DNA of 32,000 bases from an archaeon GW2011_AR10 (GTDB lineage Archaea; Iainarchaeota; Iainarchaeia; Iainarchaeales; GW2011-AR10), in the NCBI GenBank assembly GCA_000830275.1, contig CP010424.1:690001-722000 (forward strand), in the 5' to 3' direction. Below are positions 1 through 25,191 of this stretch, one piece after another. Positions within the stretch are counted from its first letter, which is position 1. Every line of letters starts with the position of its first letter. The notes under the pieces are model-generated. The model worked only from the letters and a program-made list of their open reading frames with translations, did not search any database and was not told where the DNA came from. The position numbers and the translations under genes are program-made.

Positions 1-1
1 G

Positions 2-991
2 GAAGGATACAAGCTGCCGGGAGCGGGAATCTATAACGTGCAGATTGACATAACTTATGATGATGAAACATGGCAGCTCTTCGATGACAAGGGAGCGAAT
101 GCAAAGATTAGGGTGAAGCTGAGCAAGGCCGATACTCCAAGGCCTGACTCGCCTTTTTACAGCCTGCCGTTTGACGGGACAATTGGAGGCGATGGAAGAG
201 TGGGCTATGGCCTTAACTATAATGGAGAGGTTGTCTTGGTTAACTCTGACATCGAGGGGGTTAGAACAGTTGAATTGCCTGGCTCAACTCCAGTGAGAGA
301 ATTGACTGTTGAGGTTTCAAACAGCTTCAAGAGGCTTAACACTGACAACAGGGGCGTTGTGCTACAGGTGCTTGGAGGCTCTGAACCAAAGCTCGTGTAT
401 TCGCCGAGCAAGGCCACTCCAGTTATGCTGAGGCTGGTGAACAACCAGGACGAGGCATGGGCGTTTTACAGCGTTGAGGTTTCAGGCGGAGCACAAGAAG
501 TTGGGCCAAGCATGAACAGATGGGTTGGCGTTGGCTTCAACTGCAAGGGCTTTGATGACAGGTATATGACTGAGTACTTCTTTGAGGCTGACCAGCATGG
601 TCTTCAGACAAGCTGTGCAAGGCTTGAGCCAAACAGGATTAAGACAAGCTATGGCTTTGAGTTCTGTGATGCCGTGAAGTTCGGCGACATGTACTTGAAG
701 TCAGTGTTCTTTACTCCACAAGAGCAGCAGAGCCTCATGACTTTGACTGGAAGAAACGATGACTCAGAGCTGATAACTTCAAGCACTGCCGGAACAATTG
801 TTTCCTTGGATGGAATAGGAATTGCTGGAACAATTAATTCAGTTGAGGACATATTTGACTTGGTTAAGGAAGAGCTTGTGTGCGTTTCAACAAGCGAGGG
901 AAAAACAGAGTTCTGGTGGAACACAAAGAAAGTGCTTGAAACAATTCAGAGCCAGGAAGACAGGGCAATCAACCAGTGCATTCTTGAGTAA
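2..991 (+). CDS. C-terminal ~330 aa of a large secreted/surface protein (5' end lies upstream of the window); paralog of the C-terminus of the next gene
   Basis: Frame +2 is open from nt 2 (EGYKLPGAGIYNVQIDITYDDETW...), so the GTG at 38 in the ORF track is internal. By-eye alignment to the end of the 1019..7768 product: DSPFYSLPFDG vs NSPFYYTPFDG; SKATPVMLRL vs ARATPLLLKI; SVEDIFDLVKEELVCVSTSEGKTEFWWNTK vs SIQDVFELVKQEEICITSSGTQASFWWNPK. Confidence 0.75.
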   Translation, partial: EGYKLPGAGIYNVQIDITYDDETWQLFDDKGANAKIRVKLSKADTPRPDSPFYSLPFDGTIGGDGRVGYGLNYNGEVVLVNSDIEGVRTVELPGSTPVRELTVEVSNSFKRLNTDNRGVVLQVLGGSEPKLVYSPSKATPVMLRLVNNQDEAWAFYSVEVSGGAQEVGPSMNRWVGVGFNCKGFDDRYMTEYFFEADQHGLQTSCARLEPNRIKTSYGFEFCDAVKFGDMYLKSVFFTPQEQQSLMTLTGRNDDSELITSSTAGTIVSLDGIGIAGTINSVEDIFDLVKEELVCVSTSEGKTEFWWNTKKVLETIQSQEDRAINQCILE

Positions 992-1018
992 TGAAAATGA
1001 TGGGGCAAGGAAAGAGAA

Positions 1019-4000
1019 ATGGGATTAAAGGAAATTTATTATTCGCTGGAGGACAAATATTATGCTTTTCTTGACCGTCTCAACGAGTCTATTCCTGTTT
1101 ACAAAGTAATTGATCCCATTGACAGGATTGTACCGAGCTTTGCCTTGTTTTCAGCGATTTTTCTCCTAATACTCATTGCAGTCTTATACATAATCTTTTC
1201 TTCTTTTTTGCCAGTGGCAAAAGGAAGCCTTTCGGTTGTTGTAAAAAGCCAGGATGGAGAGCCGCTGCAGAATGCAACAGTACTTGTTTCAGGCCAAGCC
1301 CTTGAGTTCCCTGTTGAGGAGAAAACCAACAAGAGTGGAAGGGCACTGGTAGAGGAATTAGAGCAGGGAAAAGAGTACTCGGTTGAAGTGGAAAAACGAA
1401 ATTACCGGAAGGCAACTGAAACTGTTGTATTGGATGAAGCAGAAAAACTCCTTATGGTTGAATTGGAGCGTGAAACACCTCCACCAAGCCCAATAACCAT
1501 TGAATTTACCGATTCCAGCGGCAAAAAAATGGATGGCCGAACAATTCAGGTGCATTTTTCCTGCACCAACAGCCAGGTTGCTTTGCTTCAGGCTGATTTC
1601 TCTGTTACCAGCGGAGAAATAACCATTACCCCGCCTGAAGATTGCGGGCTGCTGAGCGTGAGGGCAACTGCTTCTGGTTTCAAGCCCCTGGAGGCAATAA
1701 TTGACAGGGGCGGGAAAGTGCTGCGGTTTGAAGCAGAGGAAACCGCTAAGGGAAGCATTCTGTTTGTTGTAAGGGACTCTGAAACCGACAGGCTGTTGAA
1801 TGGCATAAAGGTTTCGGTTTTTGATTTGCAGGATTTCCCGGTTGGAGTTCCGCGTTTTACTGACAGAGGCGAAGCAGTTTTTTCAATTGAACCAGGCTCA
1901 TACAAAGCAATAATCGAAGATGAAAGCTCGGATTACGGCAGCGAGGAAGTAAGCTTTTCAGTGCAGGAAAGGGAATCATCCACAAGGGAAGTGGAGCTCT
2001 CAAAGCAGGTTAAAGCATTTTTGAATGTTTCAGTAATTGAGGGAAGCTCCGGAGAGGAACTCAACGGGGCAAGCATTTTTGTGAGGAAAGAAAACGGTGC
2101 GAGGGTTGCAAGCAAAGAACTTGAAGAGGATGAGTCAACTGCAATATTTGCCTTGACCGACTCAGGGGTTTACATTGTTTCTGCTTCAAAGGAAGGCTTC
2201 CTTGTTTCTTCCCCGGTTAGGGTTGATACCACTGGCCTTGACTTGGAGGAAGAAGTGGATGTTGTAATCGAGTTAGAGCAGTGCACTCCCACGACATGCG
2301 GAATTATCCGGGTTAAGGTTGAGGACGAGGAAGGATTGACAGTAGAAAACGCGGTTGTTTACCTCCTTGACCCTGCAACTGGTTTCCTGCTGAGCGAGTA
2401 CGGCAGCAAAGTAACAGATGCAAATGGATTAACCTCTGCATTTACTAATGTTAAGGAAGGCTCATACAAGGCAACCGCGCAAAAGTACCCTGCTTCTGGA
2501 ACCTCCAACGCGCTTGAAGTTGACATGACTGCTGAAAACATTATAACTGTTGTAATGGTTATTGGTGATGGAACAATTGAGGTTATTGCAACTGACTTGG
2601 ATGGAAGAGAAGTTCCATTTGCTCTTGCAGAGCTGAGAACCCATTCAGGGGAAGTGCTTGGAACAATTTCGCTTGATGAAGAAGGGAAAGGCTCTTTGAG
2701 CACTAAAGCAGACAAAAGGGTTTACGCAATTGTAACGGCTGATGGTTTCTCCAGGTTTGTGTCAAACTCAAGGCAGGTTTTCAGGAACGAGAAGGTAACA
2801 ATCAACGCTGTTCTTGAGCGAGAAATTTCAGGGGACAAGGCAACAGTAAGATGGTTTGGTTTGTTTGATGAGAGCGGCAACCGCATTGAAGATGCGCTGG
2901 GCGCGGGAGAAACATACATTGCAAGGTTCCAGCTTTTAGTGCCGGAAAACAACGACTTCTTTGAAAGCGGGCTGCATGTAAGGGTTGGAGAGAAGCGGCT
3001 GCTGGAAAACGACATGATACTAATTGCGGGAATCAATGCTCCGGAAACAACAATAGTGAAAGGCACTTCTTTTACTCCTGAAACAGGTACAAATGAAGAT
3101 TATGACAACCTAACTAATGCTGACGCGAAGTGGGCAAACATTGTTTGGATTGGAGAAACCGGGGAAGTTGAAGGCGGAATTTACAATGTCGAAGTTGAAT
3201 TGAAAGTAAAGCGCGAAACAACTCCTGGCTTTGAATTGCCGGTGTTCTACCGCGCGTGGGCTTTAAGCGACTTTGACGGTTACGTGAGGGATCCGGTTGA
3301 TGCAAGGCTTGGAAATTCAGAGAGCACTTCTGCAAGGCACGCGCTTTACGCTGAAGCTTACAAGCAGCCGTTCTTCGAGGGCGCAACCCAGCTGTGCGAT
3401 GAAAACTTCTGTTACAGTGAGAGGGTTGTTGACTTAAGTGAGGGGCTAATACTAAAAGACACTCCTTATGAAGCGAGAGTGTTCTCTGACTACATTGTTT
3501 TGTTTTCCATAACAAACAACAGTTCAACAAGGCATGACAATGCAACGCTGCATGTGCTGAACGAGGACACTGAAGGAAATGATGCAGATGTGCTTGGAAT
3601 CGAAGACTACAACATAGTGAATGCTGACTCTGAACTTTTTTCTTCTTCTACAAGGGCTTTTGAAATTGGGCCAATTGGGTTGGGCAACTTTTCTCCTTTC
3701 AGGTCAGTAAACTCTGACTTGCTTGTCAGGCCCAGAAAAATGGAGGACAGCAATTTGAGGCTGAGAATTGTTTCAGCCGGAAACGAAGTGCTTGAGAAAA
3801 GAATAAACTTCACTGTTGTATCTGAATCAGACCTAAATGTGATTGTTGAGCCTGACACTCTGCCTGCTTTTTTGCCGATTGACCTGCTGGTCAAGGTTAG
3901 GTTTAAGGAAGGAAACAATGCGGGTTTGCCCGCTGCAAGAGCCAACGTGATTGTTTCAAGGATTGCTCCTGACAGGAGCGAGAGCTCTTCCTCAAAGAAA

Positions 4001-7000
4001 ACTGACGCTGCAGGAAACGCTTTGTTCCAGATATGCCAAGGAAACGGCTGCTCTCCCAGCACAAAGGTTAGAATTGAAGTGCAGCTTGCAGGCTATGGAA
4101 GCGAAGTGATTGAAAAAGAAATCACAGCAAGAGTTCTGAGTGTTAGCCCGGAAGAAATCGTTTCAAACCTTGACTTGACTGAGGTAACAGAGGAACGCAT
4201 TAACCTGAACCTGAAGAATCTTGTCCCGAAAACAGTTAAGGTTTCAAATGTGAGAATCAGCGGCGCCTTTAATGGTCTGCTTGAACTGCAGCAGATGAAC
4301 AATTTCGTGCAGGGCAGCCTCCCACTTGAAATCGAGAGAGAGCAGACAAAAGCATTGACTGTTCTGACTTCCTTGAGTGAGCAGGCACAACTAATTGACG
4401 CGCCTGTTGAAGTGCGGGGAAGCCTCCTGCTGGATGTGGAAGAGGAAACTCTAGGGGTTACGTGGAGCTTTGATGTGCCGCTAACAGTTGCAATCAACCT
4501 TGCGCAGCCACCAAGTAACGGTGACTGCCTGATAATTGAAGGAACCGAAGTGCCAAACTGGAGGGAATCAACAGAGGAAAAGGTTGCAATAAATTCGTTC
4601 AGCATCACCAATTCCTGCATCACTGAATCCAACAGGCCAATGGACCTAAAGGACTTGCAGGCAACAATCGACTGGACTGGAGAAGACGGGGTTGTGGGGC
4701 AAGTTGAATTGACTGTTGTCAACCCTGAAACAGGCGAGAGCAGGAGCGAGATACTCCAGGAAAGCATTTGGAGCGAACTTTTGCCGAGCATTCCAGCGGA
4801 ACAACAGTTTTTGGCCACGCTAAAGTTTTTGCCAAAGCCAAGCCAGAGGGGAAAGAAAGCAGAGTTCAGGGTTGAAATCAGGGGAGGGCTTTTAACCAAT
4901 CGCGGAGAGCAGGCAGTCAATGCGAATGAAACAATTGACGCTGAACTTCACATAATCAACTTGTCTGAGTGCATTAACTTTGAGCCAAACGCGCAGGAAG
5001 GCCTAGACCTTGGCACCAATGAAAGCGGAGAATTCACAATTGACACAGCTGAATGCGGTGAAATAGACCTTGATTTGCGTTTCTGCAACAATGATTCTGA
5101 ATGCAGTGGCGGAACAGGAAGAGGCATAACAATTGCGCCTTCAGCTGGAAATAAAGTTACAGTCAACGCGGGAGAAACATTTACTCTTGCAGTTGAACGG
5201 GGCGCTGCTCTACCAGGAATCTATGGCATTCCTGTTGAGGCAAGGCCTCCTGGAGGAAGCTGGAGACAAGTTGCAGTGCTTGACGTGTTAATTGACCCAA
5301 TGGAAGGGGAAGCATTTACTTTGAACAGGTATGACTTTATTTTGATTGGAGAAAACGCGAAGGATTCCGTAACCTTGAGCAACAAGTGGCTTGAAGAAGG
5401 GGTTTCAGTCAATGCAGGGGTTTGCGATTGGGAGGAAGCAACTGACAGCTTAGAGTTTTCAGGCATTGGAGCAATTGTTGGAGGAGCAGCAGGAATAGGA
5501 ATTGGCTATCTTGCCTTGGCAGCTTTTTGCCTGCCGTGTGCACTTGTTGGAGCGGTCATTGGAGCACTGCTGCCAGGATTGTTTGGGGAAGAAGACAAGT
5601 GTGATCCAAACCTTACCCAGAACCTGGTGGATTGGGTAATTAACCTTGCTGGAACTGAAGCTGCAGACGAAACAAGAAGTGTTCCGCCTGACGCGCGCGA
5701 CATTACCGTAAGTGATGACAGGATTTCTGCTGAATGGAAGCTTGACATAACTGATGTTAGAAGCGGTGGAAGCTCTGTTCCACCGCCATCAGGAGAGTTT
5801 GTGCAGGGCTTTACGGACAAGAAACAGGATGTCGGAGTCATTTTTACAAACTCTGGACTAGATGAATCCACTGCAATTTACTCAATTGCAACATTCAATG
5901 CACTCGAGCATATTCACGGAGATTCAACGCATGCAGCACCAGCAGTCAACTGCAGAGCTGGAAACTTTGGCTTTTACTGGATTGGCGGAAGTGACCAAGG
6001 AAACTGCAGCCCTGTTTCAGAGCGCAACTACTCGCAGTCATTCCACCTGCGCTTCAAGTCAAGGCTGCAGGAAGAAACTCTGCCGCCAGTGCAGGGAGAA
6101 ATGGTTGCTTGCAGCACCGGCACCAAGTTTGGAAGGACAGGACAGGATGCGCTCCCGAGAGTAAAGCTAAACTGGAGCTGGGTGGAGCCAGCAGGAATTG
6201 GAGTTGACAGCTGTGACTTCGATAACCCGGATTACATTTATTGTGATGCAACGCAATTCACGATTGAGTTGAACAAGAAAATACACAGGCTTTACAGGTT
6301 CTTGGAAGAACAAAGTTTTATCCTTGAATGCCCGAGCACGCCTCAAGGCCTGGAAGTAACCCCTGAAATGACCGCCAGGGGTTGCTGGCTTGAGAGAACC
6401 ACAGAGGTAAGAGGGGGCGTGCCGCAAATAATCAAGTTCCTTGATGCAAACCCGGACATAAGTGAAGCAGAGAAAGACGAAATAAGGAAGCTGCTGAAAT
6501 TCAAGGCTTATTTGGTGAAGGATGCATACACCACTGACTTCAAGCAGGACTTTGCAAAGTATTATAGTGAGACAGAGTTTGCAGATGCTGACTCTTATTT
6601 CACCAGCATTGGCTCTAATTCAATCGGAGAAACCTATGGATTCAGCAAGCTTTTCACTGAGTCAGGAGCATTCAATTACACAACCAAGTACACTGAGCAG
6701 AACTTCATCCAGACTCCTGGTTTGTACGAGGTGGAGCTTGCGCTCTTCTTTGGAAACGACTGGAGGTTCTTTGACGAGGAAGGCAATCCAACAGTTAAAA
6801 TTACAGCAGTGCTTTTGAACATTGATGACCCTTTCCCGAACTCTCCATTCTATTACACTCCATTTGATGGAAGGGTTGGCATTGAGGGAGATGACTACCA
6901 CAGGCAAGGCTACGGCGTCAGCTATGATTTGGCTGGTTCAGAGGGGCTTGTCAACATTAACAATGGTCCGCCGGCAGTGCAGGCCTTAACTGACATTGGT

Positions 7001-7768
7001 TCAAACCCGGTTGTGGAACTTGATGCAAGGATTGAGAGTGGCTTTTTCGAGTTAAACGCTTCCCCTGAAACGAGGGGTTCGCTGCTGATACTTGAGAACG
7101 ATGGAACTCAAGGAGGAATAGTGCTGCAGCCGGCAAGGGCAACACCGCTTTTGTTGAAAATAAGCTCTGATGCAACTGATGAAGCGTTTGGAGCATACTA
7201 TAAGCTGTTCATTAATGACACTCAGACATGGGTTGGGAACAGCCTCAATTACTGGAGCGGGGCAGGAGCATGTCTTGACTTTTCCGGAGTGCCAGTTAAC
7301 GAGGCATTCGATGAAAGGCCGGACAGGCTTGCAACCGAGGCTGACGCAGTGCTTAACTGGCAGAACACCTACACTGTTCAATGGAATGAGGTGCTTGACT
7401 CCGGGGATGTTTACCTGCAAACAATTTTCTACACAGACCCCTTGTCTAATTCAGTAATCACTGTGGAGGAACCGAAAGGCAGCATGGAGTTCATTACACC
7501 TGACGAGCAGGGAGCGTCTGTTTCACTTAACGGCATCAGCTCAATGCCCTATAACAATTATGCAGGCGGCAGTGTTGGAAACGTTGGCTCAATCCAAGAC
7601 GTGTTTGAATTGGTGAAACAAGAAGAGATTTGCATTACAAGCTCAGGCACTCAGGCCTCATTCTGGTGGAACCCTAAAACTATTTACGAGCAGCCTGGCA
7701 CTAGCAGGAGCATTCACCAAACAGCACAGGAACTGGAGGCAGGGGCTTCCTGCATTGGCTATAGTTAA
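1019..7768 (+). CDS. Giant (2249 aa) membrane-anchored surface protein with beta-sandwich repeats, an internal hydrophobic hairpin, a Cys-rich region and a conserved C-terminal module
   Basis: Uninterrupted 2249-codon ORF with a purine-rich stretch (GGAAAGAG) before the ATG. N-terminal TM helix at aa ~38-63 (VPSFALFSAIFLLILIAVLYIIFSSFL). Six ~80-90 aa repeats at aa ~69-600 (nt ~1223-2823) resemble carboxypeptidase-regulatory-like/Ig-like folds, e.g. GSLSVVVKSQDGEPLQNATVLVSG...KTNKSGRALVEEL..GKEYSVEVEKRNYRK and GIIRVKVEDEEGLTVENAVVYLLD...TDANGLTSAFTNVKEGSYKATAQK. Gly-rich hydrophobic segment at nt ~5461-5590. The C-terminal ~350 aa are shared with the upstream gene. All antisense ORFs in the track are shadows. 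Confidence 0.9.
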   Translation: MGLKEIYYSLEDKYYAFLDRLNESIPVYKVIDPIDRIVPSFALFSAIFLLILIAVLYIIFSSFLPVAKGSLSVVVKSQDGEPLQNATVLVSGQALEFPVEEKTNKSGRALVEELEQGKEYSVEVEKRNYRKATETVVLDEAEKLLMVELERETPPPSPITIEFTDSSGKKMDGRTIQVHFSCTNSQVALLQADFSVTSGEITITPPEDCGLLSVRATASGFKPLEAIIDRGGKVLRFEAEETAKGSILFVVRDSETDRLLNGIKVSVFDLQDFPVGVPRFTDRGEAVFSIEPGSYKAIIEDESSDYGSEEVSFSVQERESSTREVELSKQVKAFLNVSVIEGSSGEELNGASIFVRKENGARVASKELEEDESTAIFALTDSGVYIVSASKEGFLVSSPVRVDTTGLDLEEEVDVVIELEQCTPTTCGIIRVKVEDEEGLTVENAVVYLLDPATGFLLSEYGSKVTDANGLTSAFTNVKEGSYKATAQKYPASGTSNALEVDMTAENIITVVMVIGDGTIEVIATDLDGREVPFALAELRTHSGEVLGTISLDEEGKGSLSTKADKRVYAIVTADGFSRFVSNSRQVFRNEKVTINAVLEREISGDKATVRWFGLFDESGNRIEDALGAGETYIARFQLLVPENNDFFESGLHVRVGEKRLLENDMILIAGINAPETTIVKGTSFTPETGTNEDYDNLTNADAKWANIVWIGETGEVEGGIYNVEVELKVKRETTPGFELPVFYRAWALSDFDGYVRDPVDARLGNSESTSARHALYAEAYKQPFFEGATQLCDENFCYSERVVDLSEGLILKDTPYEARVFSDYIVLFSITNNSSTRHDNATLHVLNEDTEGNDADVLGIEDYNIVNADSELFSSSTRAFEIGPIGLGNFSPFRSVNSDLLVRPRKMEDSNLRLRIVSAGNEVLEKRINFTVVSESDLNVIVEPDTLPAFLPIDLLVKVRFKEGNNAGLPAARANVIVSRIAPDRSESSSSKKTDAAGNALFQICQGNGCSPSTKVRIEVQLAGYGSEVIEKEITARVLSVSPEEIVSNLDLTEVTEERINLNLKNLVPKTVKVSNVRISGAFNGLLELQQMNNFVQGSLPLEIEREQTKALTVLTSLSEQAQLIDAPVEVRGSLLLDVEEETLGVTWSFDVPLTVAINLAQPPSNGDCLIIEGTEVPNWRESTEEKVAINSFSITNSCITESNRPMDLKDLQATIDWTGEDGVVGQVELTVVNPETGESRSEILQESIWSELLPSIPAEQQFLATLKFLPKPSQRGKKAEFRVEIRGGLLTNRGEQAVNANETIDAELHIINLSECINFEPNAQEGLDLGTNESGEFTIDTAECGEIDLDLRFCNNDSECSGGTGRGITIAPSAGNKVTVNAGETFTLAVERGAALPGIYGIPVEARPPGGSWRQVAVLDVLIDPMEGEAFTLNRYDFILIGENAKDSVTLSNKWLEEGVSVNAGVCDWEEATDSLEFSGIGAIVGGAAGIGIGYLALAAFCLPCALVGAVIGALLPGLFGEEDKCDPNLTQNLVDWVINLAGTEAADETRSVPPDARDITVSDDRISAEWKLDITDVRSGGSSVPPPSGEFVQGFTDKKQDVGVIFTNSGLDESTAIYSIATFNALEHIHGDSTHAAPAVNCRAGNFGFYWIGGSDQGNCSPVSERNYSQSFHLRFKSRLQEETLPPVQGEMVACSTGTKFGRTGQDALPRVKLNWSWVEPAGIGVDSCDFDNPDYIYCDATQFTIELNKKIHRLYRFLEEQSFILECPSTPQGLEVTPEMTARGCWLERTTEVRGGVPQIIKFLDANPDISEAEKDEIRKLLKFKAYLVKDAYTTDFKQDFAKYYSETEFADADSYFTSIGSNSIGETYGFSKLFTESGAFNYTTKYTEQNFIQTPGLYEVELALFFGNDWRFFDEEGNPTVKITAVLLNIDDPFPNSPFYYTPFDGRVGIEGDDYHRQGYGVSYDLAGSEGLVNINNGPPAVQALTDIGSNPVVELDARIESGFFELNASPETRGSLLILENDGTQGGIVLQPARATPLLLKISSDATDEAFGAYYKLFINDTQTWVGNSLNYWSGAGACLDFSGVPVNEAFDERPDRLATEADAVLNWQNTYTVQWNEVLDSGDVYLQTIFYTDPLSNSVITVEEPKGSMEFITPDEQGASVSLNGISSMPYNNYAGGSVGNVGSIQDVFELVKQEEICITSSGTQASFWWNPKTIYEQPGTSRSIHQTAQELEAGASCIGYS

Positions 7769-7783
7769 CTTTTTATAGAAATT
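7769..7783 (+). promoter_or_regulatory. TATA-like box upstream of the small-membrane-protein gene row
   Basis: CTTTTTATAGAAATT is centred ~24 nt before ATG 7800, consistent with a leaderless or short-leader archaeal transcript. Confidence 0.3.
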
Positions 7784-7799
7784 AAAACATTAAGCATTT

Positions 7800-8177
7800 A
7801 TGCTTTTTACTATCCTGTTAAGCCTCACGGAAATCTGGAATGATTTCAACCTAATAATCAAAATCTTCGTAGTTATGACCATTTACAGTTGGGTGAGGAA
7901 CCACGTTGAGGGATGGATTGGCTGGGTTGTTTTCGGCATAATAACATTCTTTGTAGTGTTTGACCTGTGGGCCATATTTGGCTCCGTTTATGTGGTTTAC
8001 ATGCTGCTGATGTTCGGCATAAGCCAAGTACTTATTGACTTTTTCTTCATTAGTGCAGGAAGAGGTGGCCACGAAGAAATGGAAAGCCCGGTCAGCAGTG
8101 GAGCTGACTTGGCTGCAAGGCAGCAGCACATTGCTGCAAGGCAAGCTGGAATGATGAAAAGCTTTTTCAAGAGATGA
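7800..8177 (+). CDS. Small polytopic membrane protein (125 aa, ~3 TM), hypothetical
   Basis: ORF starts 31 nt after the giant gene, with a TATA-like box ~24 nt upstream of the ATG. Hydrophobic segments IIKIFVVMTIYSW, WIGWVVFGIITFFVVF and IFGSVYVVYMLLMFGISQVLIDFFFI. Polar tail ends in KSFFKR. Confidence 0.7.
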   Translation: MLFTILLSLTEIWNDFNLIIKIFVVMTIYSWVRNHVEGWIGWVVFGIITFFVVFDLWAIFGSVYVVYMLLMFGISQVLIDFFFISAGRGGHEEMESPVSSGADLAARQQHIAARQAGMMKSFFKR

Positions 8178-8182
8178 GTTAA

Positions 8183-8497
8183 GTGAATGAACGAGGGAAC
8201 CTTCTTCTGATTGTGCTGGCAGCAATGATTTTGCTTGCAATTCTGCCGGTGCTATTAGCACACCTCTTCTGGCCTGTTAAGCTTGTCGCGCAAATTATTT
8301 TCGTGTTTGTCATCTATTCTACTGTGCGAGGGTTCATGGGACCAGGGCACTTAACCATCGTGATTTCAGCAGTACTAATATACTTCATGGTATTCAAATA
8401 CTTTGACATAATGCTTAGCCTTTACATTTTCCAGCTTATGCTTGGAGTGCAGTTCCTCTCGGTAATAATCTGGGGAATTGGCACAAGGATGAGGTGA
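8183..8497 (+). CDS. Small polytopic membrane protein (104 aa), hypothetical; paralog-like to neighbours
   Basis: GTG start 5 nt after the previous stop; the nearby ATG at 8187 is out of frame and terminates quickly. Three to four hydrophobic helices. The motif VIYSTVRGFMGPG resembles TIYSWVRNHVEG in the upstream product. Confidence 0.65.
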   Translation: MNERGNLLLIVLAAMILLAILPVLLAHLFWPVKLVAQIIFVFVIYSTVRGFMGPGHLTIVISAVLIYFMVFKYFDIMLSLYIFQLMLGVQFLSVIIWGIGTRMR

Positions 8498-8576
8498 CAT
8501 TAAACGTGTTGCGGTATTGGAAGTGCGAGGGAAAGGAATTTAAAGCCGGAAACTTAAAATTGTTTAGGATGGGAAT

Positions 8577-8849
8577 ATGATTGGGTTGATTCTGCAGACC
8601 GGCCTGACAGAGAATGTCTGGATTGCGTTAACCTTGTTTGTTTTTGTCTGGCTTTTCAGCTGGGCCAAAACAAATCTTGGTTCGGCAAAGCTTGCGATTC
8701 TTTTCGCGGTAATTGTAGTATACCTTACCTTTTACTCTTACTCTATTCTGATATGGATTGCAGTTGCATTGTTCCTGTTCGCCACTTTTGGCAAGGAGCT
8801 ATTTTCAAGGGTTAACCCATTTGAAGGAAGCAGTGGTGGTTTAAGGTGA
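8577..8849 (+). CDS. Small membrane protein (90 aa), hypothetical
   Basis: ATG preceded by AGGATGGGAAT. Helices WIALTLFVFVWLFSW, LAILFAVIVVYLTFY and ILIWIAVALFLFATF. The motif LFSWAKTNLGS resembles the YSW/YST-(V/A)-(R/K) motif of the two upstream products. Confidence 0.65.
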   Translation: MIGLILQTGLTENVWIALTLFVFVWLFSWAKTNLGSAKLAILFAVIVVYLTFYSYSILIWIAVALFLFATFGKELFSRVNPFEGSSGGLR

Positions 8850-8948
8850 ACTGGAATAAACAGGGTTTTCTCAAAGCCGGAAATCAGAGCAGCACCATGC
8901 AACTGAAAGGGGCATGGCAAATGCAAGCAAACCAGAGCAGTGCCATAC

Positions 8949-8994
8949 GAAACGAAGCAGTGCCATCGAAGATGGCACAGGTCGTAAACGAACC
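8949..8994 (+). repeat. Diverged copy of the hairpin element (stem GTGCCATC / GATGGCAC, loop GAA)
   Basis: GAAACGAAGCAGTGCCATCGAAGATGGCACAGGTCGTAAACGAACC parallels the 9039 and 15089 units (GAAACGAGCCAGTGGCATCGCAGATGCCACACCTCGTAAAC). Compensatory changes keep an 8-bp stem with a 3-nt loop (8960..8978). Confidence 0.5.
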
Positions 8995-9038
8995 TTTTCG
9001 TTTTGGCACGCCTTGCAAACGGAGGTAACAGTTTTTTG

Positions 9039-9098
9039 CGAGTGAAACGAGCCAGTGGCATCGCAGATGCCACACCTCGTAAACTGAGGTAACAGTTT
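9039..9098 (+). promoter_or_regulatory. ~60-nt hairpin-containing leader element ending at the start codon of the 9099 gene
   Basis: CGAGTGAAACGAGCCAGTGGCATCGCAGATGCCACACCTCGTAAACTGAGGTAACAGTTT|ATGGAT. Perfect hairpin GTGGCATC-GCA-GATGCCAC at 9055..9073. GAGGT lies 8 nt before the ATG. Confidence 0.6.
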
Positions 9099-9413
9099 AT
9101 GGATACGTTCAATTTTCTTGTGTCAATTCTTCTCATAATAATTGCAATACAATACCAGCAGAACTGGATTGTTTTCGCAATCCTGATTATTTCGATTCTT
9201 TCAACTAGATCGCTTTCAACTGCAATAACCCTTATTATTTCAACTATTGTGGTGTATGCAGTTCTTGGTTCGGGCGACATTTCGAGCTTGTTCCCTGTTG
9301 TTGTGTTCGGCTTAATCATTTTTGCGTTGGTTCTTGGCTTGGCTGAAAAGCCAAAACAGCCAGAATATTATCCCCCTGACCCCGGCTACGGTGAAATGCT
9401 TGGCGGCGGCTGA
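9099..9413 (+). CDS. Small membrane protein (104 aa), hypothetical
   Basis: ATG preceded by GAGGT 8 nt upstream, within the hairpin repeat element. Three hydrophobic helices. Pro/Tyr-rich tail KPKQPEYYPPDPGYGEMLGGG. Confidence 0.65.
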   Translation: MDTFNFLVSILLIIIAIQYQQNWIVFAILIISILSTRSLSTAITLIISTIVVYAVLGSGDISSLFPVVVFGLIIFALVLGLAEKPKQPEYYPPDPGYGEMLGGG

Positions 9414-9429
9414 TAAAACCGATTCAGCA

Positions 9430-9783
9430 TTGGTTGTGCTGGTATTAGTGCTGATTCTAGTGTTTGTGAAACTGGACGAAATGCTGCTTGCATTGTTGGC
9501 TGCCTTTATGCTGGTGCTGCTTTTATTTGTAAGGGCTTTTGGCGCTTTTACTGGAAGCGCTTCTGCAGTTGGAAAGGTCATTGGAGAGGAAGCAGGAAGG
9601 GAATACGGGGACATTGAAAAAGCAAAGGGAACTTTTCCCTCAGGAGAAGAGCTTTCCAGCATAGCGGGGGAACAGGCAAGGGCTTTTGGGGGAAAAGAAA
9701 AACTTTCAGGCAGCACCATGGAGAAATTCTCGAAGGGCGCCGAACGCTTTGTGAAAAAAGCAAAAAAATTTTTTCAGAAATAG
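9430..9783 (+). CDS. Small membrane protein with a charged C-terminal tail, hypothetical (start uncertain)
   Basis: The track ORF 9322..9783 overlaps the previous gene by 92 nt in another frame. In-frame TTG 9430, GTG 9436 and ATG 9481 lie just after that gene's stop. The product has two hydrophobic helices (VVLVLVLILVFV, LLALLAAFMLVLLLFVRAFGAF) and a Lys-rich tail ending KKFFQK. Confidence 0.5.
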   Translation: MVVLVLVLILVFVKLDEMLLALLAAFMLVLLLFVRAFGAFTGSASAVGKVIGEEAGREYGDIEKAKGTFPSGEELSSIAGEQARAFGGKEKLSGSTMEKFSKGAERFVKKAKKFFQK

Positions 9784-9796
9784 TGTTTCTGGCAGC

Positions 9797-10381
9797 CTAC
9801 TTTTCAAGGGAGTTCAGGATGTCGCGGTTTGTTGAAATCACTTTCTTCAAAAGCGACTGAACTGCTTCGTTTCCTGCCTTTAAATCAGCTAGCTCCCTTT
9901 CAAACTCTGAAAGCTTTTTCTCTATCTGCTTGAGTTTTGAGTCATCCCCGGATTCAGATGCAGGCATTGACTCAACTTTGGAGTGAATTGCTTCCATCCG
10001 CTGTTTGAGCTCATCAAGCTTGCTGCTCTGCTCTTCAAGCGCAGTATGAGTTGTTGTGTGTCCAAGCTCGTGGCTTTCCCTGAAATTGTTAAGGTGCTCT
10101 TTGATTGTTGCAGCAATGCTTCCAACATTTCCTTCATGCTTTTCTTCAGCGAAACCTTCTTCCCCTGCTTCCAAATCATCTTCGGATGCCCCTGATTCTT
10201 CTTCTGCACCGTATTCTTTTGTGCCCTCTGCTGGTTTTTTTCCTTTCGCTTCCGCCAAATACTGTTCCACTTCCTTGTCGTTGAACCCAATGTCCTTAAG
10301 TGTAGACCTAATGGTTTCATCATCGACTCCTGATTCAAGCATTTTCCTGATAGTGTCCATGACAATTTGCTTGCTTACCAT
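9797..10381 (-). CDS. Acidic coiled-coil protein, hypothetical
   Basis: The track starts at GTG 10408, but a TATATAAA box (10416-10423, minus sense TTTATATA) is only ~12 nt upstream of that GTG. ATG 10381 (MVSKQIVMDTIRKML...) lies ~39 nt downstream of the box and is preferred. The product has a small helical N-domain, a Glu-rich linker and heptad-like C-terminal helices. Confidence 0.6.
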   Translation of the reverse strand: MVSKQIVMDTIRKMLESGVDDETIRSTLKDIGFNDKEVEQYLAEAKGKKPAEGTKEYGAEEESGASEDDLEAGEEGFAEEKHEGNVGSIAATIKEHLNNFRESHELGHTTTHTALEEQSSKLDELKQRMEAIHSKVESMPASESGDDSKLKQIEKKLSEFERELADLKAGNEAVQSLLKKVISTNRDILNSLEK

Positions 10382-10536
10382 CAAACCACTTCTTCTATAA
10401 TATTGCACTGGGGGGTATATAAATACTTAACAACCATATAAAATCTTCCCTTAGACAGTGATGGCCCTGCGTTGGTTAATTGCAAAATAATAAATATGGT
10501 TTAGGTTATATGATTATAGATCTCTGAGTGAATTGA

Positions 10537-12027
10537 ATGGAAATTTTCAAGTTAAGCGACGGCCCGTGGAAAAAGCTGTTTGAGGGAGCATTTGAAGAGA
10601 ACGAAGTAAACATTTATTCAAACCCTAAAAGCATTATTCTTGTCCTCATTTTTGAGAAGGAATCAGGCAAGACCTCAGGCGTTGTAGTAGAGATGTTCAA
10701 GGTGTTCTTTTCAGTCGGCGAAGTGGAGGGCTTTGTCGAAACGCTGCCAAGAGAAATCATTCTCCTAACAAAGCACGATGAAAAAGAAACCCTGAAATTT
10801 CTTGTTCTCGGGTCAAGGCCATCCTACATAAAGTGGGAGGAACAGCAGTTTATGGCAGAAACCGATACAATGCTGAAGCGCCTTAAGACATCTTCAACAC
10901 TGATAAAGGATGTTTCAAAGGCATACGATCTTACGCTGCAGGAGCTCAGCGAAGCACATGAATCAGCGCAAAAAGCTTTTTTCACCCAGCCTCTTTTGGT
11001 GCCGCTGCTTTCAACCAGCTCGCATGAAACCGAGTCAGGCATAGCCGGGATTGCCAAAGGAGAAATCATTTTCGGCTTAACCAAAAAACAGGAACAGGTG
11101 CTGGAGCCGATTAATTTGTTCAATAAAACAATTATTTTTGGAGGCAGAGAACATGACAGAAGGCACGTGCTGAAAGTAATAGCTGAAAGCGCGCTGCTTT
11201 CAAGCATTCCAGTGGTGGTTCTTGACTGGAACAACGTGTTCAAGAGCCTAAACGACGCATCAAAGGACTTGGACGGGCTGAAGAAATACAAGGTGGGCAT
11301 CGATCCAATAGGTTTCCCTGTAAAAATCCTTAAGCCAGTTGAAGAAATAAAGGTTGACTTGAACTGCACTAACGCTAAAGGCTTGGCTGAAGTGTTCGGC
11401 ATCGGCGACAACATTATAACAAAAATAATTGTTGACACGCTCCGCGACAACAGGGTTTCAGGCATCAGTGAATTGATTGAAAAGGTTAAGGCAACAACGC
11501 CGGGAGAAGAGCCAAACATTTACGAGCTGAACAAAGCAGTGAGGATTCTTTCGCTGATAAGCCAGCGCTATCCCGGCCTATTTGAAGGAAAAAACGATTA
11601 CGCCAACATTGTTGCAGGCACTGGCAAGTCGATTGGAAGAGCAGCCATTATTGATTTGAGCGGAGTTGACGATAGAGTAAAGCTTTTAGTGGGGCACAAC
11701 ATTTTTAACGGCCTGCTGAAGCAGTTTAAGGGAAAAGATAAAACAGGGAAGCCACCGGTGCTTATCGTGCCGCATGCAAAAATTTTTGTCGGAGCTGAAA
11801 AAGCATCAGTTATCTCAGCCGAGTCAATAATTGTGATAAGCGAACTTGGAAAGATTGGCGTTGGCTATGCGCTGGAAGAAGAAAACGCGCTTGACATCGC
11901 CAAAGAAGTGGCGAACTCAACTGAAGCAAAAATCACTATCATCAAAGAAAATGACATTAGCGTTCAACTGAAGGGAAGACAAAGCTACAGGGTTTTCGTG
12001 AGGCCAACCCTCAGCAGAGCCTCATAA
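10537..12027 (+). CDS. HerA/DUF87 (FtsK-HerA superfamily)-like protein with degenerate Walker A and Walker B motifs
   Basis: 496-aa ORF with AT-rich TATA-like sequence upstream. Its layout matches my memory of DUF87/HerA proteins. GEIIFGLTKKQEQVLEPINLFNKTIIFGGREHDRRHVLKVI occupies the place of ...G..v.l....l..H..I.G.TGSGKS. GRAAIIDLSG matches the IDLS motif. PPVLIVPHAKIFV occupies the place of llv(I/L)EEAH.f. No GK(S/T) P-loop occurs anywhere in the protein. The family call is pattern recognition, not a search. Confidence 0.6.
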   Translation: MEIFKLSDGPWKKLFEGAFEENEVNIYSNPKSIILVLIFEKESGKTSGVVVEMFKVFFSVGEVEGFVETLPREIILLTKHDEKETLKFLVLGSRPSYIKWEEQQFMAETDTMLKRLKTSSTLIKDVSKAYDLTLQELSEAHESAQKAFFTQPLLVPLLSTSSHETESGIAGIAKGEIIFGLTKKQEQVLEPINLFNKTIIFGGREHDRRHVLKVIAESALLSSIPVVVLDWNNVFKSLNDASKDLDGLKKYKVGIDPIGFPVKILKPVEEIKVDLNCTNAKGLAEVFGIGDNIITKIIVDTLRDNRVSGISELIEKVKATTPGEEPNIYELNKAVRILSLISQRYPGLFEGKNDYANIVAGTGKSIGRAAIIDLSGVDDRVKLLVGHNIFNGLLKQFKGKDKTGKPPVLIVPHAKIFVGAEKASVISAESIIVISELGKIGVGYALEEENALDIAKEVANSTEAKITIIKENDISVQLKGRQSYRVFVRPTLSRAS

Positions 12028-12507
12028 TCATTTCCTTCTTTTTCCCTTAAGCTTGTTTTCAATCAGTTTTTCTAAGTCGCCCCTTGTAACGAATTCAAGC
12101 GGGTTAATTGCGTCAATCACGTACTTTATTTCCTTGAGCTCTTCCTGCTTGGCAAACTTGTCATTCATTTCAAGAATGGCGGACTGCATTTCTGAGAGAA
12201 GCTCTGACTGCTTTGAAACAACCGAATTGAGGTTTGCGAGCTCGTTCCTGATTGAGCCAACTTCCCCTGAAGGGGTTACACCGCCTTGCAAGCCGCCTGA
12301 TTCGAGGCCTTTAAGCTTCTTGTTTAATACTAGCAGGTTTCTTCCCAAAATTTTCTCGTTTCTTACCACGTACTTCATTTTTTGGGAGAGCACAAGAATG
12401 CTAGAGTTAAGGGCGCGGATGTCTGAGTTTATTTTTGAAAGAATCTCGGTCGCCCTAGAAGGCACACCTTTTTTTGCCCTTCTATCGTCCCTTTCAACTC
12501 TTGACAT
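12028..12507 (-). CDS. Coiled-coil protein, hypothetical
   Basis: 159-aa ORF whose stop codon directly abuts the stop of the convergent 10537..12027 gene. Basic N-terminus (MSRVERDDRRAKK) followed by long heptad-like helices. TATA-like TTTAATTAAAC ~35 nt upstream on the minus strand. Confidence 0.65.
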   Translation of the reverse strand: MSRVERDDRRAKKGVPSRATEILSKINSDIRALNSSILVLSQKMKYVVRNEKILGRNLLVLNKKLKGLESGGLQGGVTPSGEVGSIRNELANLNSVVSKQSELLSEMQSAILEMNDKFAKQEELKEIKYVIDAINPLEFVTRGDLEKLIENKLKGKRRK

Positions 12508-12618
12508 ACTTCAAGCCTCTATTCGCCTGCAACACGTTTAATTAAACAAAATCACTTAAATAATGACCATTTAAAGTAAAAAAGGTTTTCTTTGGCAGGA
12601 AAGACACCAAACCAAGAC

Positions 12619-12630
12619 AATTATAAAAGA
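12619..12630 (+). promoter_or_regulatory. TATA-like box upstream of polB
   Basis: AATTATAAAAGA is centred ~28 nt before ATG 12653. Confidence 0.3.
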
Positions 12631-12652
12631 TTTCGAAGAAAAAGGTTATATC

Positions 12653-16046: not shown

Positions 16047-17063
16047 ATGGAATTTAAGCCAAAATTTGTTGCATGGTTTTTTCTCGTAATGCTTTCTGTT
16101 CTGGTGTGGGCGTTTTTCCTAAATGCCTCCGGCCTTGGCCTAACTGAAGCAATTAATATCGCCAACTTTGAGGAAACGCTTAGAAAAATAATGTCACTGG
16201 AGTTCTTACTGCTTGTTCTGGTTTTTCCAATCACATATTCTCTTGTGGTGGTGATGGCGAAAGCAGAGGGAAGAATCGCAACTTACATTATAACATTTCT
16301 TTCATTGATTTTTGCAGGCATGCTGTCCCTTGCACTTTTCCCTAAACTGTTGGAGTTTTTGGCGCTTGGAATGCTTTACATTATTTCATTCTTTCTCGTA
16401 ATAGAGATTGCAATGCTTAAATTCCAGGAACTGAAGGCATTTGTAATGGTTAGAAGCGCCGGCGACAGCATTGGCAAAAGCATTACTGTTTTAGGCATTG
16501 GCTTGTTCGTTCTAATCTCTTTCACCGTGCTGGCAAACCAGGAGGAATTCGTCAAAGGATTTGAGGACAAGGTATTCTCTCTTGCGGCAGGCGACAGCAG
16601 CGAAATGAATTTGGAGGGCTTGAGCGCTGACCTCATAGCAGGAACACAGCTTCAAACCATACAGCAAATAAAAGGAATGCAGCAATACCAGCCATTAACA
16701 GGAAAAGATGATGTGGAAGTGCAAACGTTCTTACTCGCAATTAACGAACTAGAAGAAGTGGTTGGAAGCCAGCAGTACAGGGAACAGTTGAAAGAAAACA
16801 TCAGAAGGGAATCTGGAAACAGTCAACCTGCAGAGCGCTTCAGATCAACTTTTGAAACAATAAAGAGCCAAATACCGTTTTTTGTTTTGATTGAAAAGTA
16901 TTTCTGGCTGATAACGGCCATCTCTTTCACTTCAATTTTCTTTTTGGTTGGAGGCATCATTATTAAGCCGCTTGGAATGCTTTATGCTGGGCTATTTGAC
17001 CTTGTTTTGAGCCTGATTAGCCCAAAAGTTACTGCACAACAAAAACTTAGAGAAGCTGAGTGA
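16047..17063 (+). CDS. Polytopic membrane protein, hypothetical
   Basis: The ATG immediately follows the map stop (GTGTAAATGG), suggesting co-transcription polB-map-this gene. About 6 hydrophobic helices flank a ~120 aa soluble Gln/Glu-rich insert. Confidence 0.75.
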   Translation: MEFKPKFVAWFFLVMLSVLVWAFFLNASGLGLTEAINIANFEETLRKIMSLEFLLLVLVFPITYSLVVVMAKAEGRIATYIITFLSLIFAGMLSLALFPKLLEFLALGMLYIISFFLVIEIAMLKFQELKAFVMVRSAGDSIGKSITVLGIGLFVLISFTVLANQEEFVKGFEDKVFSLAAGDSSEMNLEGLSADLIAGTQLQTIQQIKGMQQYQPLTGKDDVEVQTFLLAINELEEVVGSQQYREQLKENIRRESGNSQPAERFRSTFETIKSQIPFFVLIEKYFWLITAISFTSIFFLVGGIIIKPLGMLYAGLFDLVLSLISPKVTAQQKLREAE

Positions 17064-22138: not shown

Positions 22139-22231
22139 GCTCCCGTGGTTCAGTGGTAGAATTCGTCCTTGGTATCTCCAAGAGAAGAGGCAACTAGGAC
22201 GAGATCGCGAGTTCGATTCTCGCCGGGAGCT
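22139..22231 (+). tRNA. tRNA-Thr: tRNA-Thr (anticodon GGU) with a 21-nt intron at 37/38
   Basis: Acceptor GCTCCCG/CGGGAGC. D arm GTTC-AGTGGTA-GAAT. Anticodon stem CGTCC/GGACG with loop TTGGTA|intron 22175..22195|A. T arm GCGAG-TTCGATT-CTCGC. Discriminator T. Relaxed BHB: the central helix has 3 Watson-Crick pairs plus one G-G mismatch. Confidence 0.85.
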
Positions 22232-24150: not shown

Positions 24151-24277
24151 GCCGGTGTAGCTCAGCGGTTAGAGCGCTTGATTCCTGCACTAATTGATGC
24201 GGGAAAGCGAAACTCATAAGGCGCTGCTTAATGCTTGGGAAATCAAGTGGCCGAGAGTTCAAATCTCTCCACCGGCA
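24151..24277 (+). tRNA. tRNA-Met/Ile2: tRNA with anticodon CAU (elongator Met or Ile2) containing two introns: 24181..24211 (position 30/31) and 24219..24241 (position 37/38)
   Basis: Acceptor GCCGGTG/CACCGGC. D arm GCTC-AGCGGTTA-GAGC. T arm GAGAG-TTCAAAT-CTCTC. Discriminator A. Removing the two segments, each bounded by a drawable bulge-helix-bulge motif, gives a 73-nt tRNA with anticodon stem CTTGA/TCAAG and loop CTCATAA. It is not an initiator: G1-C72 is present and the anticodon stem has no GGG/CCC. Confidence 0.8.
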
Positions 24278-24315
24278 CTCCAAACATTTTTATTTTTCGC
24301 AGAGGTAAGTATTGC

Positions 24316-25191
24316 ATGGATAAATTAAATATTGCAACCAAGGGCGCATTATCACTTGTTTTTATTATTGCTTTTGCTGCAGTGGTTCTTTATATTCTTA
24401 ATAACAATTTATCTTCCAAAGAACTTGGATTGGATGGCAGGGTTCTGATTTATGCATTCGTTTTCCTGATTGGGGGAATTGCACTTTTTTATTTTGGCTT
24501 CAAGTGGCTGCGCGAAAAACTGTTAATTGAAAGCATTCCAACATCAAAAATCCGAAGCCTTGCAATGGGCATTGTGGAAGTTTTTGGTGAAGTGATTCCA
24601 GCAGAGGACAAGCTTTTGAGGAGCCCTTTCACTAACAAAGACTGTGTATACTATGAATACTCAATTCAGGAGCGCCGGGGCAGCGGGAAAAACTCGCGTT
24701 GGGTTACAATCAGGCATGACAAAAATTTTTACCATTTTTTTGTGGAAGATGAAACAGGAGAAGTTTTGGTTGACCCTGATGGGGCAAACATTGATATTCC
24801 ATTCACTTTCACTTACAATTCCGGCTTATTCAAGGACCCGCCAAAAGAAGTGCAGAATTTTTTGAAATCAGAGGGATTAAGCTTTGAAGGCTTTTTTGGA
24901 ATCAATAAAACAATGAAGTTCGAGGAAAAAGCATTGGTGCCTAACAAAAAAGTTTACATAATGGGAGAAGCCGGTGACAACCCCTTTGTGGAGGAAGCAA
25001 CCTCACAGAAAGGCGTGAAGGATGTTATGATCCAGAAAGGAAAAAACGAGAAGTTCTTTTACATTTCAACCAAGCCGGAAAAAGAGGTTTTGAAAGGAAT
25101 GGGCCTGAAAGCATACGTTGGAATTGCACTTGGAATCCTCTTCATTGTGGGTTCCTTGATTGTGATTTTTGCTTTCTTTAATTTCCTGTAA
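24316..25191 (+). CDS. GIDE-domain membrane protein (the usual LemA partner)
   Basis: Start moved to ATG 24316 (AGAGGT 9 nt upstream), because the track start 24235 lies inside the tRNA gene. Two N-terminal TM helices and a C-terminal TM flank the core domain. The core (IRSLAMGIVEVFGEVIPAEDKLLRSPFTNKDCVYYEYSIQERRG...WVTIRHDKNFYHFFVEDETGEVLVDPDGANI) matches my recollection of the GIDE (PF12483) pattern. Confidence 0.75.
   Translation: MDKLNIATKGALSLVFIIAFAAVVLYILNNNLSSKELGLDGRVLIYAFVFLIGGIALFYFGFKWLREKLLIESIPTSKIRSLAMGIVEVFGEVIPAEDKLLRSPFTNKDCVYYEYSIQERRGSGKNSRWVTIRHDKNFYHFFVEDETGEVLVDPDGANIDIPFTFTYNSGLFKDPPKEVQNFLKSEGLSFEGFFGINKTMKFEEKALVPNKKVYIMGEAGDNPFVEEATSQKGVKDVMIQKGKNEKFFYISTKPEKEVLKGMGLKAYVGIALGILFIVGSLIVIFAFFNFL

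Follow-up and report, generated by a model that had tools for sequence, protein, structure and literature searches.

Ced and Ted are DNA-import systems of Crenarchaeota; the Ced components are CedA, CedA1, CedA2 and CedB, of which CedB is an active ATPase. Archaeal HerA belongs to the HerA-NurA end-resection helicase (PDB 4d2i, 9x1m and 7wrw), and the HerA-scaffolded defence complexes Sir2-HerA (Nezha) and DUF4297-HerA (PDB 8j4u, 8sub and 8zit) are ATP-dependent, effector-bearing assemblies that use the HerA ring as a platform. At the cell surface, the SPEARE proteins of nanohaloarchaea and the large proteins of Mia14, for which excerpts of PMC5498576 report large surface-layer proteins, offer a further point of comparison. 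Here we analyse 32,000 nucleotides (nt) from archaeon GW2011_AR10 (GenBank CP010424.1, positions 690,001–722,000; hereafter the window), in which positions 1–12507 hold a cluster of ten genes for two giant surface proteins, five small membrane proteins (TM1 to TM5, after their transmembrane (TM) segments), two coiled-coil proteins (cc1 and cc2) and a HerA-like protein without a P-loop (Table 1).

The GW2011_AR10 genome, which we take to be the basis of Candidatus Iainarchaeum andersonii, falls by lineage look-up of Candidatus Iainarchaeum in the phylum Iainarchaeota (formerly Diapherotrites) within DPANN. Iainarchaeota and related lineages are small-genome archaea without cultured members. As one of few phylum-wide multi-gene arrangements made wholly of uncharacterised proteins, the cluster provides a concrete target for work on their surface and on their contacts with other cells. 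All ten products were compared with Pfam, NCBIfam, PHROGs and PADLOC, and the matches were limited to CarboxypepD_reg/Ig-like domains in the giant, a marginal DUF87 match and coiled-coil noise. This agrees with a preliminary description of the same DNA, made from its letters, which had recognised no well-characterised family beyond beta-sandwich repeats: judged by these libraries, none of the components belongs to an unrelated family that is well understood. A full-text literature search, including excerpts of PMC6393860, PMC5898192 and PMC5498576, found no description of either the cluster or the Walker-less HerA family. The cluster is real, strongly conserved and undescribed, and its most distinctive part is a phylum-wide HerA paralogue, predicted to be inactive, that is coupled to membrane and coiled-coil proteins.

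A HerA-fold protein lacking Walker A

The HerA-like protein is identical in sequence to the hypothetical protein QT03_C0001G0754 of archaeon GW2011_AR10. The preliminary description had likened its layout to HerA/DUF87 and noted the missing P-loop, and both observations were borne out. In Pfam, the protein matched DUF87, the HerA central domain, with 24.3 bits (cut-off 23.2) over profile positions 40–214 only; the P-loop would be expected in the unmatched start of this profile. A profile of the family retrieved Sulfolobus HerA (4d2i) as its best sequence in the PDB (E 0.0075), and the HMMER alignment of the two places the viEEAH of HerA opposite lpeae in the family, which reads VLIVPH in the window protein. 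The AlphaFold2 model (predicted local distance difference test (pLDDT) 85) contains an all-beta N-terminal domain with strands at residues 12–99, followed by an alpha/beta core. Foldseek matched this model to 9x1m (E 7.5e-14) and 4d2i (E 8e-13) with probability 1.0, and nearly all of the top 50 matches were HerA or HerA-complex entries (E 7.5e-14 to ~1e-8), with DndH at rank 48 and no entry named VirB4 or FtsK. Both methods describe a HAS-type beta-barrel followed by a RecA-like core. Of the HerA, VirB4 and FtsK folds that the preliminary description had in mind, HerA proper is therefore the closest.

Compared with archaeal HerA (4d2i, 9x1m and 7wrw; E 7.5e-14 to 1e-10), the window protein shares the fold, the domain order and a RecA-like core with a helical insertion, at ~10% identity in structural alignments and with a weak but specific sequence match to 4d2i and DUF87. 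The two differ at the ATP site. Walker A (GxxGxGK[ST]) was found in none of 159 full-length relatives, whereas it was present in three canonical HerA-like controls; the corresponding site of the family reads GGxxx(E/D)RxH, with R208 in 134 of the 159 members and E217 in all of them. The first Walker B position (residue 412) is most often occupied by proline (93 members), with glutamate in 30 and aspartate in 10. The residues W11, G180, E217, R336, R485 and R489 are invariant or nearly so. The genomic context differs as well, since membrane and coiled-coil genes stand where NurA, Mre11 or Rad50 neighbours might be sought, and none of these three was found here.

A profile search of 1.84 billion cluster representatives returned 352 clusters at 50% identity, 178 of them below 1e-30, and the family is therefore broad. 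A further homology search with a divergent alignment of the family retrieved only close relatives and three canonical HerA proteins. Because Walker A is missing, Walker B is altered and new invariant residues have appeared, we infer that these sequences form an old, strongly selected and catalytically inactive branch of HerA. Such a family-wide loss of Walker A fits the suggestion of the preliminary description that the ATPase-like subunit is a non-catalytic scaffold. The family would represent a motor protein that lost ATP binding long ago and was repurposed under strong selection.

Conservation of the gene arrangement

We first compared the gene surroundings of eight HerA-like homologues, at 55–21% identity. 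Six showed the arrangement of a giant gene, five to nine small genes, cc1 on the minus strand and the HerA-like gene on the plus strand. Five of these six also carried cc2 on the minus strand (loci L001, L003, L008, L009 and L079), the sixth being L078. The small-gene position in these relatives holds only proteins of ~76–205 residues, and the order is kept down to 25–27% identity of the HerA-like protein, with eight to nine small genes (L009 and L079).

When GTDB genomes, one for each species, were searched with a cc2 profile, 68 loci emerged, mostly labelled Candidatus Iainarchaeum and a few Micrarchaeota. Six-frame open reading frames (ORFs) from these loci were compared with our own profiles, and each gene was counted only where the contig has room for it. 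The HerA-like gene was present in 57/58 loci, cc1 in 50/51, all of TM1–4 in 39/41 and, past TM1, a giant bearing the C-terminal module in 29/32; the order giant/TM1–4/cc1/HerA-like/cc2 was invariant across the counted loci. The gene order that the preliminary description had proposed to look for in relatives does recur, and its recurrence in 68 species-level loci places the arrangement beyond chance.

The involvement of HerA paralogues as scaffolds in anti-phage systems, with Sir2-HerA and DUF4297-HerA among the top structural neighbours of our model, raises the alternative that the HerA-like gene travels in a provirus, a defence island or an integrated mobile element. This alternative is effectively refuted. 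The locus is fixed across the 68 species and sits beside the genes for family-B DNA polymerase (PolB) and methionine aminopeptidase (MetAP) (50/51 species-level loci), GC content is even over the block (0.41–0.48, compared with 0.38–0.48 in the window), PHROGs and PADLOC gave coiled-coil noise only, and no relatives were found in IMG/VR, PLSDB or INPHARED. In contrast with the described defence complexes, no effector was found, neither a nuclease nor a Sir2 gene.

A more serious alternative is inherited synteny of independent units, in a region that is rarely rearranged: the giant with the small-TM operon, a cytoplasmic housekeeping pair of cc1 and the HerA-like gene, and cc2 with PolB. PolB, MetAP and even the membrane protein encoded at 16047..17063 are kept in the same array. 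The gap between PolB and cc2 is as tight as any (median 30 nt, compared with 73 nt between the HerA-like gene and cc1), insertions of >400 nt separate cc2 from the HerA-like gene in 11/60 loci, L007 and the contig of the homologue P0139 each carry a solitary HerA-like gene, and giants are mostly located elsewhere. On the other hand, the order persists where PolB and MetAP have diverged to 36–48% identity, a distance at which mostly operon-level links survive, and the spacing is uneven: the interval between MetAP and PolB tolerates insertions (20/41 gaps >400 nt), whereas the HerA-like/cc1 pair is compact, as is the TM4-TM3-TM2-TM1 row, in which spacing never exceeds 343 nt. The distant locus L078 also bears on this point. 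Identity of the HerA-like protein falls to only 21% there and PolB is missing, yet a TM4/TM5-like row, cc1, the HerA-like gene and a 2018-residue CarboxypepD_reg giant with the same N-terminal anchor as the window giant lie adjacent to one another, in partly different order. This adjacency despite the lost PolB supports a functional link among the parts, and we regard independent inheritance as possible while leaning against it.

The small membrane proteins

The first gene of the small row starts 31 nt past the 2249-residue giant gene, and the preliminary description was correct in this respect and in the position at which the row ends (9783). Its claim that all five products are polytopic holds for the first four, each with three to four hydrophobic segments by hydropathy, but not for TM5, which consists of an N-terminal hydrophobic segment and a basic, soluble, amphipathic tail of ~75 residues. 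The start of the fifth gene was also misplaced: its longest ORF begins with TTG at 9322 and overlaps the TM4 gene, whereas orthologues put the start near 9430. The small genes can be judged real because orthologues are recognised by their TM1–4 profiles in 39 of the 41 related loci with enough sequence. No Pfam, NCBIfam, PHROG or PADLOC family matched the small proteins at the sequence level, with Pfam and NCBIfam examined up to E 1.

We compared orthologue alignments from six loci by hhalign. TM1 and TM2 are homologous (97.6%, E 4.5e-12) and TM1 and TM3 probably so (85.7%, E 5.5e-6), while neither TM2-TM3 nor TM2-TM4 paralogy was supported; a loop (W/F)V(R/K)xxxGxG after the first helix is common to TM1, TM2 and TM3. 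The TM4 profile detects a homologue in L078 (E 2.6e-7) and matches one TM5-like protein of L079 (E 6e-4) through an N-terminal segment of the form MDxxx-hydrophobic-Q/N-W-hydrophobic. TM5-like genes number one to several per locus, as in L009 (s5–s8), with further copies in L078 and L079. By these comparisons the small proteins fall into two paralogous sets, TM1–3 on the one hand and TM4 with the TM5-like proteins on the other.

The spacer between the TM3 and TM4 genes contains a tandem duplication of ~95 nt. GGAGGTAACAGTTT / GAGGTAACAGTTT occurs in the spacer twice, and the TM4 start follows immediately on the second copy. Each repeat comprises the Shine-Dalgarno-like GGAGGTAACAGTTT and a GC-rich hairpin, GTGCCATCGAAGATGGCAC / GTGGCATCGCAGATGCCAC, in which both arms of the stem carry changes, and the RNA fold z-score of the spacer is -4.3. 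Since the TM3-TM4 gap in L001 is 3 nt, the spacer appears to be a lineage-specific insertion or leader duplication.

The layout is reminiscent of Ced and Ted, in which the gene of an FtsK/HerA-superfamily protein adjoins those of several small proteins; the small proteins of Ced have 2–4 TM helices. On this likeness the preliminary description had built its analogy, and one can envisage an active Ced or type IV secretion-like apparatus in which the inactive HerA paralogue is regulatory or structural and the ATPase is encoded elsewhere; degenerate ATPase domains do occur in other secretion ATPases. We consider such an apparatus decidedly unlikely, and the analogy does not hold at the level of components. 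Unlike the active CedB/TedB-type ATPase, the HerA-like protein is predicted from its motifs to be inactive, and no active ATPase was found in the ~80 loci inspected. Instead of a polytopic CedA, TedA or VirB6-like protein, the row has as its largest member a protein of 125 residues. Type IV secretion families are included among those that the small proteins failed to match, and no likeness to the pilins CedA1 or TedC emerged from this comparison, which was one of sequence alone. VirB4, VirD4, VirB6, VirB2/3 and relaxase were not found in the window or related loci, nor were plasmid relatives, and the structural neighbours of the HerA-like protein are HerA proper. The giants and coiled-coil partners belong to the present cluster only, in a different phylum. 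Furthermore, signal peptides on stand-alone homologues of the giants' C-terminal module and the N-terminal TM anchor of the giants suggest Sec-dependent export.

The coiled-coil proteins

The divergent pair of cc1 and the HerA-like gene lies where the preliminary description placed it. In cc1, a small helical domain at the N-terminus is joined by an acidic linker to a coiled coil at the C-terminus, and the acidic protein is predicted to be cytoplasmic. Orthologues confirm an ATG start at 10381, and a homologue is encoded in L078 (E 1e-10). Searches of Pfam and the PDB with cc1 gave nothing beyond coiled-coil noise; profile matches of cc1 and cc2 in the PDB, to apolipoprotein, designed coiled coils and the like, were rejected as composition effects.

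The cc2 gene closes the block, its stop codon abutting the stop of the HerA-like gene at 12027, again as first described. Its neighbours are the HerA-like gene in 57/58 loci and, divergently, PolB in 50/51 species (window 12508–12652; L010–L077), the median gap being ~30 nt when ORFs are delimited from stop to stop. This divergent arrangement and short gap suggest a shared bidirectional promoter region and possibly a link between cc2 and replication. The usual cc2 position in L078 (4879–5550) is occupied by a gene for a 223-residue SMC_ScpA protein (kleisin, PF02616), with the giant gene next to it on the opposite strand. Whether cc2 is a member of the module is uncertain.

The pairing with the replicative PolB brings in a different alternative, that of a membrane-tethered chromosome or cell-cycle device in which an inactive HerA ring, cc2, cc1 and the small TM proteins clamp DNA as an FtsK-like tether without a motor, the giants being bystanders. 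Members of the FtsK/HerA superfamily are DNA-handling rings. The tight divergent pairing, the ScpA gene at the cc2 position in L078, the basic character of cc2 (pI, isoelectric point, 9.9) and the near-invariant R336, R485 and R489 are all compatible with such a device. However, no DNA-binding domain was detected by Pfam or NCBIfam in the block products and there is no nucleoside triphosphatase to move DNA. Solitary HerA-like genes adjoin proteasome, exosome and transcription genes rather than replication genes, and L078 retains the link to a giant. We therefore regard a DNA tether as unlikely.

The giant surface proteins

The two consecutive giants on the same strand share a C-terminal module, as the preliminary description had noted, with 32% identity over 345 aligned residues (BLASTP, E 1e-45). 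The complete protein of 2249 residues is composed of an N-terminal peptide, a TM helix, CarboxypepD_reg/Ig-like repeats, a long unassigned middle, a Gly/Ala-rich segment and the C-terminal module. Pfam CarboxypepD_reg matched at residues 71–142 with 65.7 bits (cut-off 32.3), two stretches being recognised in all, accompanied by weaker Big_1/SpaA beta-sandwich matches, and hydropathy identified hydrophobic segments at residues 33–71, corresponding to the N-terminal TM helix, and 1482–1524. In these repeats and the membrane anchor, and in their size of several thousand residues and their multiple, tandem copies, the giants resemble the SPEARE and Mia14 proteins, and stand-alone homologues carry signal peptides. 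They differ in having a distinct N-terminal peptide anchor, an internal Gly-rich segment and a C-terminal fold of ~550 residues without structural match, and we found neither a protease or nuclease nor a PKD or laminin-G domain here.

The same N-terminal motif heads giants in L005, L009, L073 and L078, the last of which has the anchor but not the C-terminal module. The peptide and the following TM helix are the common anchor of the giants, and the peptide is predicted to be cytoplasmic. Most of residues 168–720 of the AlphaFold2 model of the C-terminal module have pLDDT 75–90 (~550 confident residues). Foldseek gave no match below E 0.03 in the PDB or BFVD, only isolated beta-sandwich sub-domains being aligned, and a similarity to the flavivirus E protein was dismissed at Foldseek probability 0.01–0.02. 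The module also occurs in stand-alone proteins of 800–1000 residues, some with an N-terminal signal peptide, after which a similar Gly-rich hydrophobic segment follows (e.g. P0044–P0046). Because these stand-alone homologues bear signal peptides, the module is most likely extracellular.

Most aligned sequences that reach the C-terminus have a conserved cysteine 4–6 residues from it (C-I-x-x...), found in both window giants (7735–7768 and 964–991). Examples are SCIGYS, QCILE and CITG, with longer tails in P0044 and P0045. Despite a superficial likeness to a CaaX-type lipidation box, this cysteine is probably a disulfide partner.

A metagenome scan with an alignment of three anchor sequences yielded 60 loci, many of them tandem arrays of giants. 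Copy number is highly variable both upstream of the small-gene row and in separate arrays (L005 (1–20157), L086, L108, L110 and L114), with up to five large genes in tandem, stand-alone C-terminal-module versions included; this variation suggests rapid turnover of the surface repertoire. An Orc1/Cdc6-like gene adjoins anchor-bearing copies in L085 (7110–8318), L088 (11374–12591) and L121 (7493–8698), accompanied by a small gene whose product begins M.FMDK.FKK..D, continues with an acidic stretch and has a SepF-like look. These loci hint at a second recurrent context of the giants near a replication origin.

A putative envelope scaffold

Downstream of the giant membrane-anchored proteins, which form a tandem array of variable size, a same-strand operon of small integral membrane proteins begins after short gaps. 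Based on this organisation, the reading we prefer, plausible rather than probable, is that the cluster encodes an undescribed envelope module present across Iainarchaeota, in which an inactive HerA ring would combine with a coiled-coil adaptor and a platform of small TM proteins into a motor-less scaffold for giant surface proteins. On this reading the module would not be a nucleoside triphosphate-driven translocase. The small proteins would assemble into a membrane platform, and the paralogy among them suggests that it would be a hetero-oligomer. The TM1 tail, the PEYY..GYG tail of TM4 and the TM5 tail, all predicted on the cytoplasmic side, would act with cc1 to dock the HerA paralogue, as a ring, beneath the membrane, where the invariant E217, R336, R485 and R489 may form a functional surface in place of the ATP site. 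This static platform would organise or anchor the giants through their N-terminal peptide and TM helix, the shared anchor being a possible point of contact on the cytoplasmic side, and the beta-sandwich stalk and cysteine-containing C-terminal module would be displayed outside the cell as an envelope structure or in cell-cell contact.

In a more specific form, which we consider doubtful, the cluster would represent a new class of envelope machine, with the nucleotide-free HerA ring, the miniature membrane platform and the coiled-coil adaptor as a fixed baseplate for interchangeable giant adhesins. These adhesins would be drawn from a multi-copy family with one N-terminal docking peptide and would serve partner-cell contact or envelope architecture in Iainarchaeota. 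A likeness to rotary ATPases or type III export (ring, coiled-coil stalks and small TM proteins) was also considered and set aside as an analogy without sequence or structural support.

Several observations weigh against the scaffold. PolB (50/51 loci) and MetAP (31/34) are as conserved in position as the giants; part of the order may therefore be inherited, and order alone is no proof of one machine. By gap statistics cc2 is bound to PolB as tightly as to the HerA-like gene, and in L078 it is absent, with the ScpA gene in its place. In two distant lineages, represented by the Micrarchaeota metagenome-assembled genome L007 and the P0139 contig, the HerA-like gene is surrounded by housekeeping genes (proteasome, exosome, aCPSF and TFE), and neither a giant nor a TM row is nearby; a 157-residue divergent neighbour of P0139 is a candidate cc1. 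Only two of the 60 anchor-scan loci show a small-TM row downstream, and at least nine loci with 2.7–5 kb of downstream sequence run into unrelated genes, e.g. Orc1/Cdc6; the giants are therefore a multi-copy family with most copies elsewhere. The parts of the module are linked by synteny only, known anchoring systems show no link in structure or homology to the small proteins, cc1 or the giants, and both topology and ring formation are putative.

If the ring does dock membrane proteins, the FtsK/HerA fold would extend from pumps to static scaffolds. The giant anchor peptide, the C-terminal module, the two small-membrane families, cc1 and cc2 also provide searchable signatures for annotating metagenome-assembled genomes.

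Table 1. Features of the cluster, in window coordinates.
Feature	Coordinates	Strand	Description	Evidence
Upstream giant gene	2..991	+	3' end only, 329 codons; runs off the window; carries the shared C-terminal module	Translation; own giantC profile match
Giant surface protein	1019..7768	+	Membrane-anchored, 2249 residues	ORF; Pfam; hydropathy
N-terminal anchor	1019..1213	+	Conserved peptide of ~38 residues, MGLKEIYYSLEDKYYAFLDRL..IPVYKVIDPIDRIVPSF (start also written MGLKEIYYSLEDKYY..IPVYKVIDPIDRIVPSF), then first TM helix	
Gly/Ala-rich segment	5462..5590	+	Hydrophobic, residues 1482–1524, before the C-terminal module	Hydropathy; weak Pfam Gly-zipper match
Folded part of C-terminal module	6101..7768	+	Residues ~1695–2249; conserved Cys; motif PFYY.PFDG...RQGYGV	Alignment; AlphaFold2
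TM1	7800..8177	+	125 residues; 3–4 hydrophobic segments; basic C-terminal tail	
TM2	8183..8497	+	104 residues; GTG start; conserved VRG..G.G loop	
TM3	8577..8849	+	90 residues; probable TM1 paralogue	
TM3-TM4 spacer	8850..9098	+	249 nt; repeat-bearing, with hairpins	
TM4	9099..9413	+	104 residues; conserved C-terminal PEYY.PD.GYG..LGG tail	
TM5-type	9430..9783	+	~117 residues; start uncertain, longest ORF from 9322	Orthologue comparison
cc1	9797..10381	-	Acidic coiled-coil protein, 194 residues; pI 4.8; 44 Asp and Glu; divergent from HerA-like gene	
HerA-like protein	10537..12027	+	496 residues; N-terminal beta-barrel, then RecA-like core	Pfam; profile vs PDB; AlphaFold2; Foldseek
Degenerate P-loop site	11140..11166	+	GGREHDRRH, residues 202–210; HerA has GxxGxGK[ST]	Alignments
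Degenerate Walker B site	11758..11778	+	VLIVPHA, residues 408–414; HerA has hhhhEEAH	HMMER alignment to 4d2i
cc2	12028..12507	-	Basic coiled-coil protein, 159 residues; pI 9.9; convergent with HerA-like gene, divergent from PolB	

Genomic surroundings

The remainder of the window is ordinary archaeal chromosome, with genes for PolB, MetAP, HisRS, ribose-5-phosphate isomerase, TrkA and tRNAs. The window PolB has 807 residues and is intein-free. In the relatives L008 (12288–15977) and L009 (11998–15582), PolB carries inteins (Pfam Intein_splicing), giving products of 1194–1229 residues.

Directly 3' of MetAP, positions 16047..17063 encode a polytopic membrane protein of 338 residues without Pfam match. 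Many related loci keep this protein in its place after MetAP (matches in ~20 of those scanned). It thus adds to the uncharacterised part of the syntenic array and could be a missing membrane component.

A tRNA of 127 nt at 24151–24277, matched by Rfam and missed by ARAGORN, presumably contains an intron. It overlaps the TTG start of the ORF 24235..25191, which encodes a GIDE-domain protein, and the true start of this ORF is therefore probably further downstream. The tRNAs at 17389–17504 and 22139–22231 are likewise over-long, which suggests introns in these as well.

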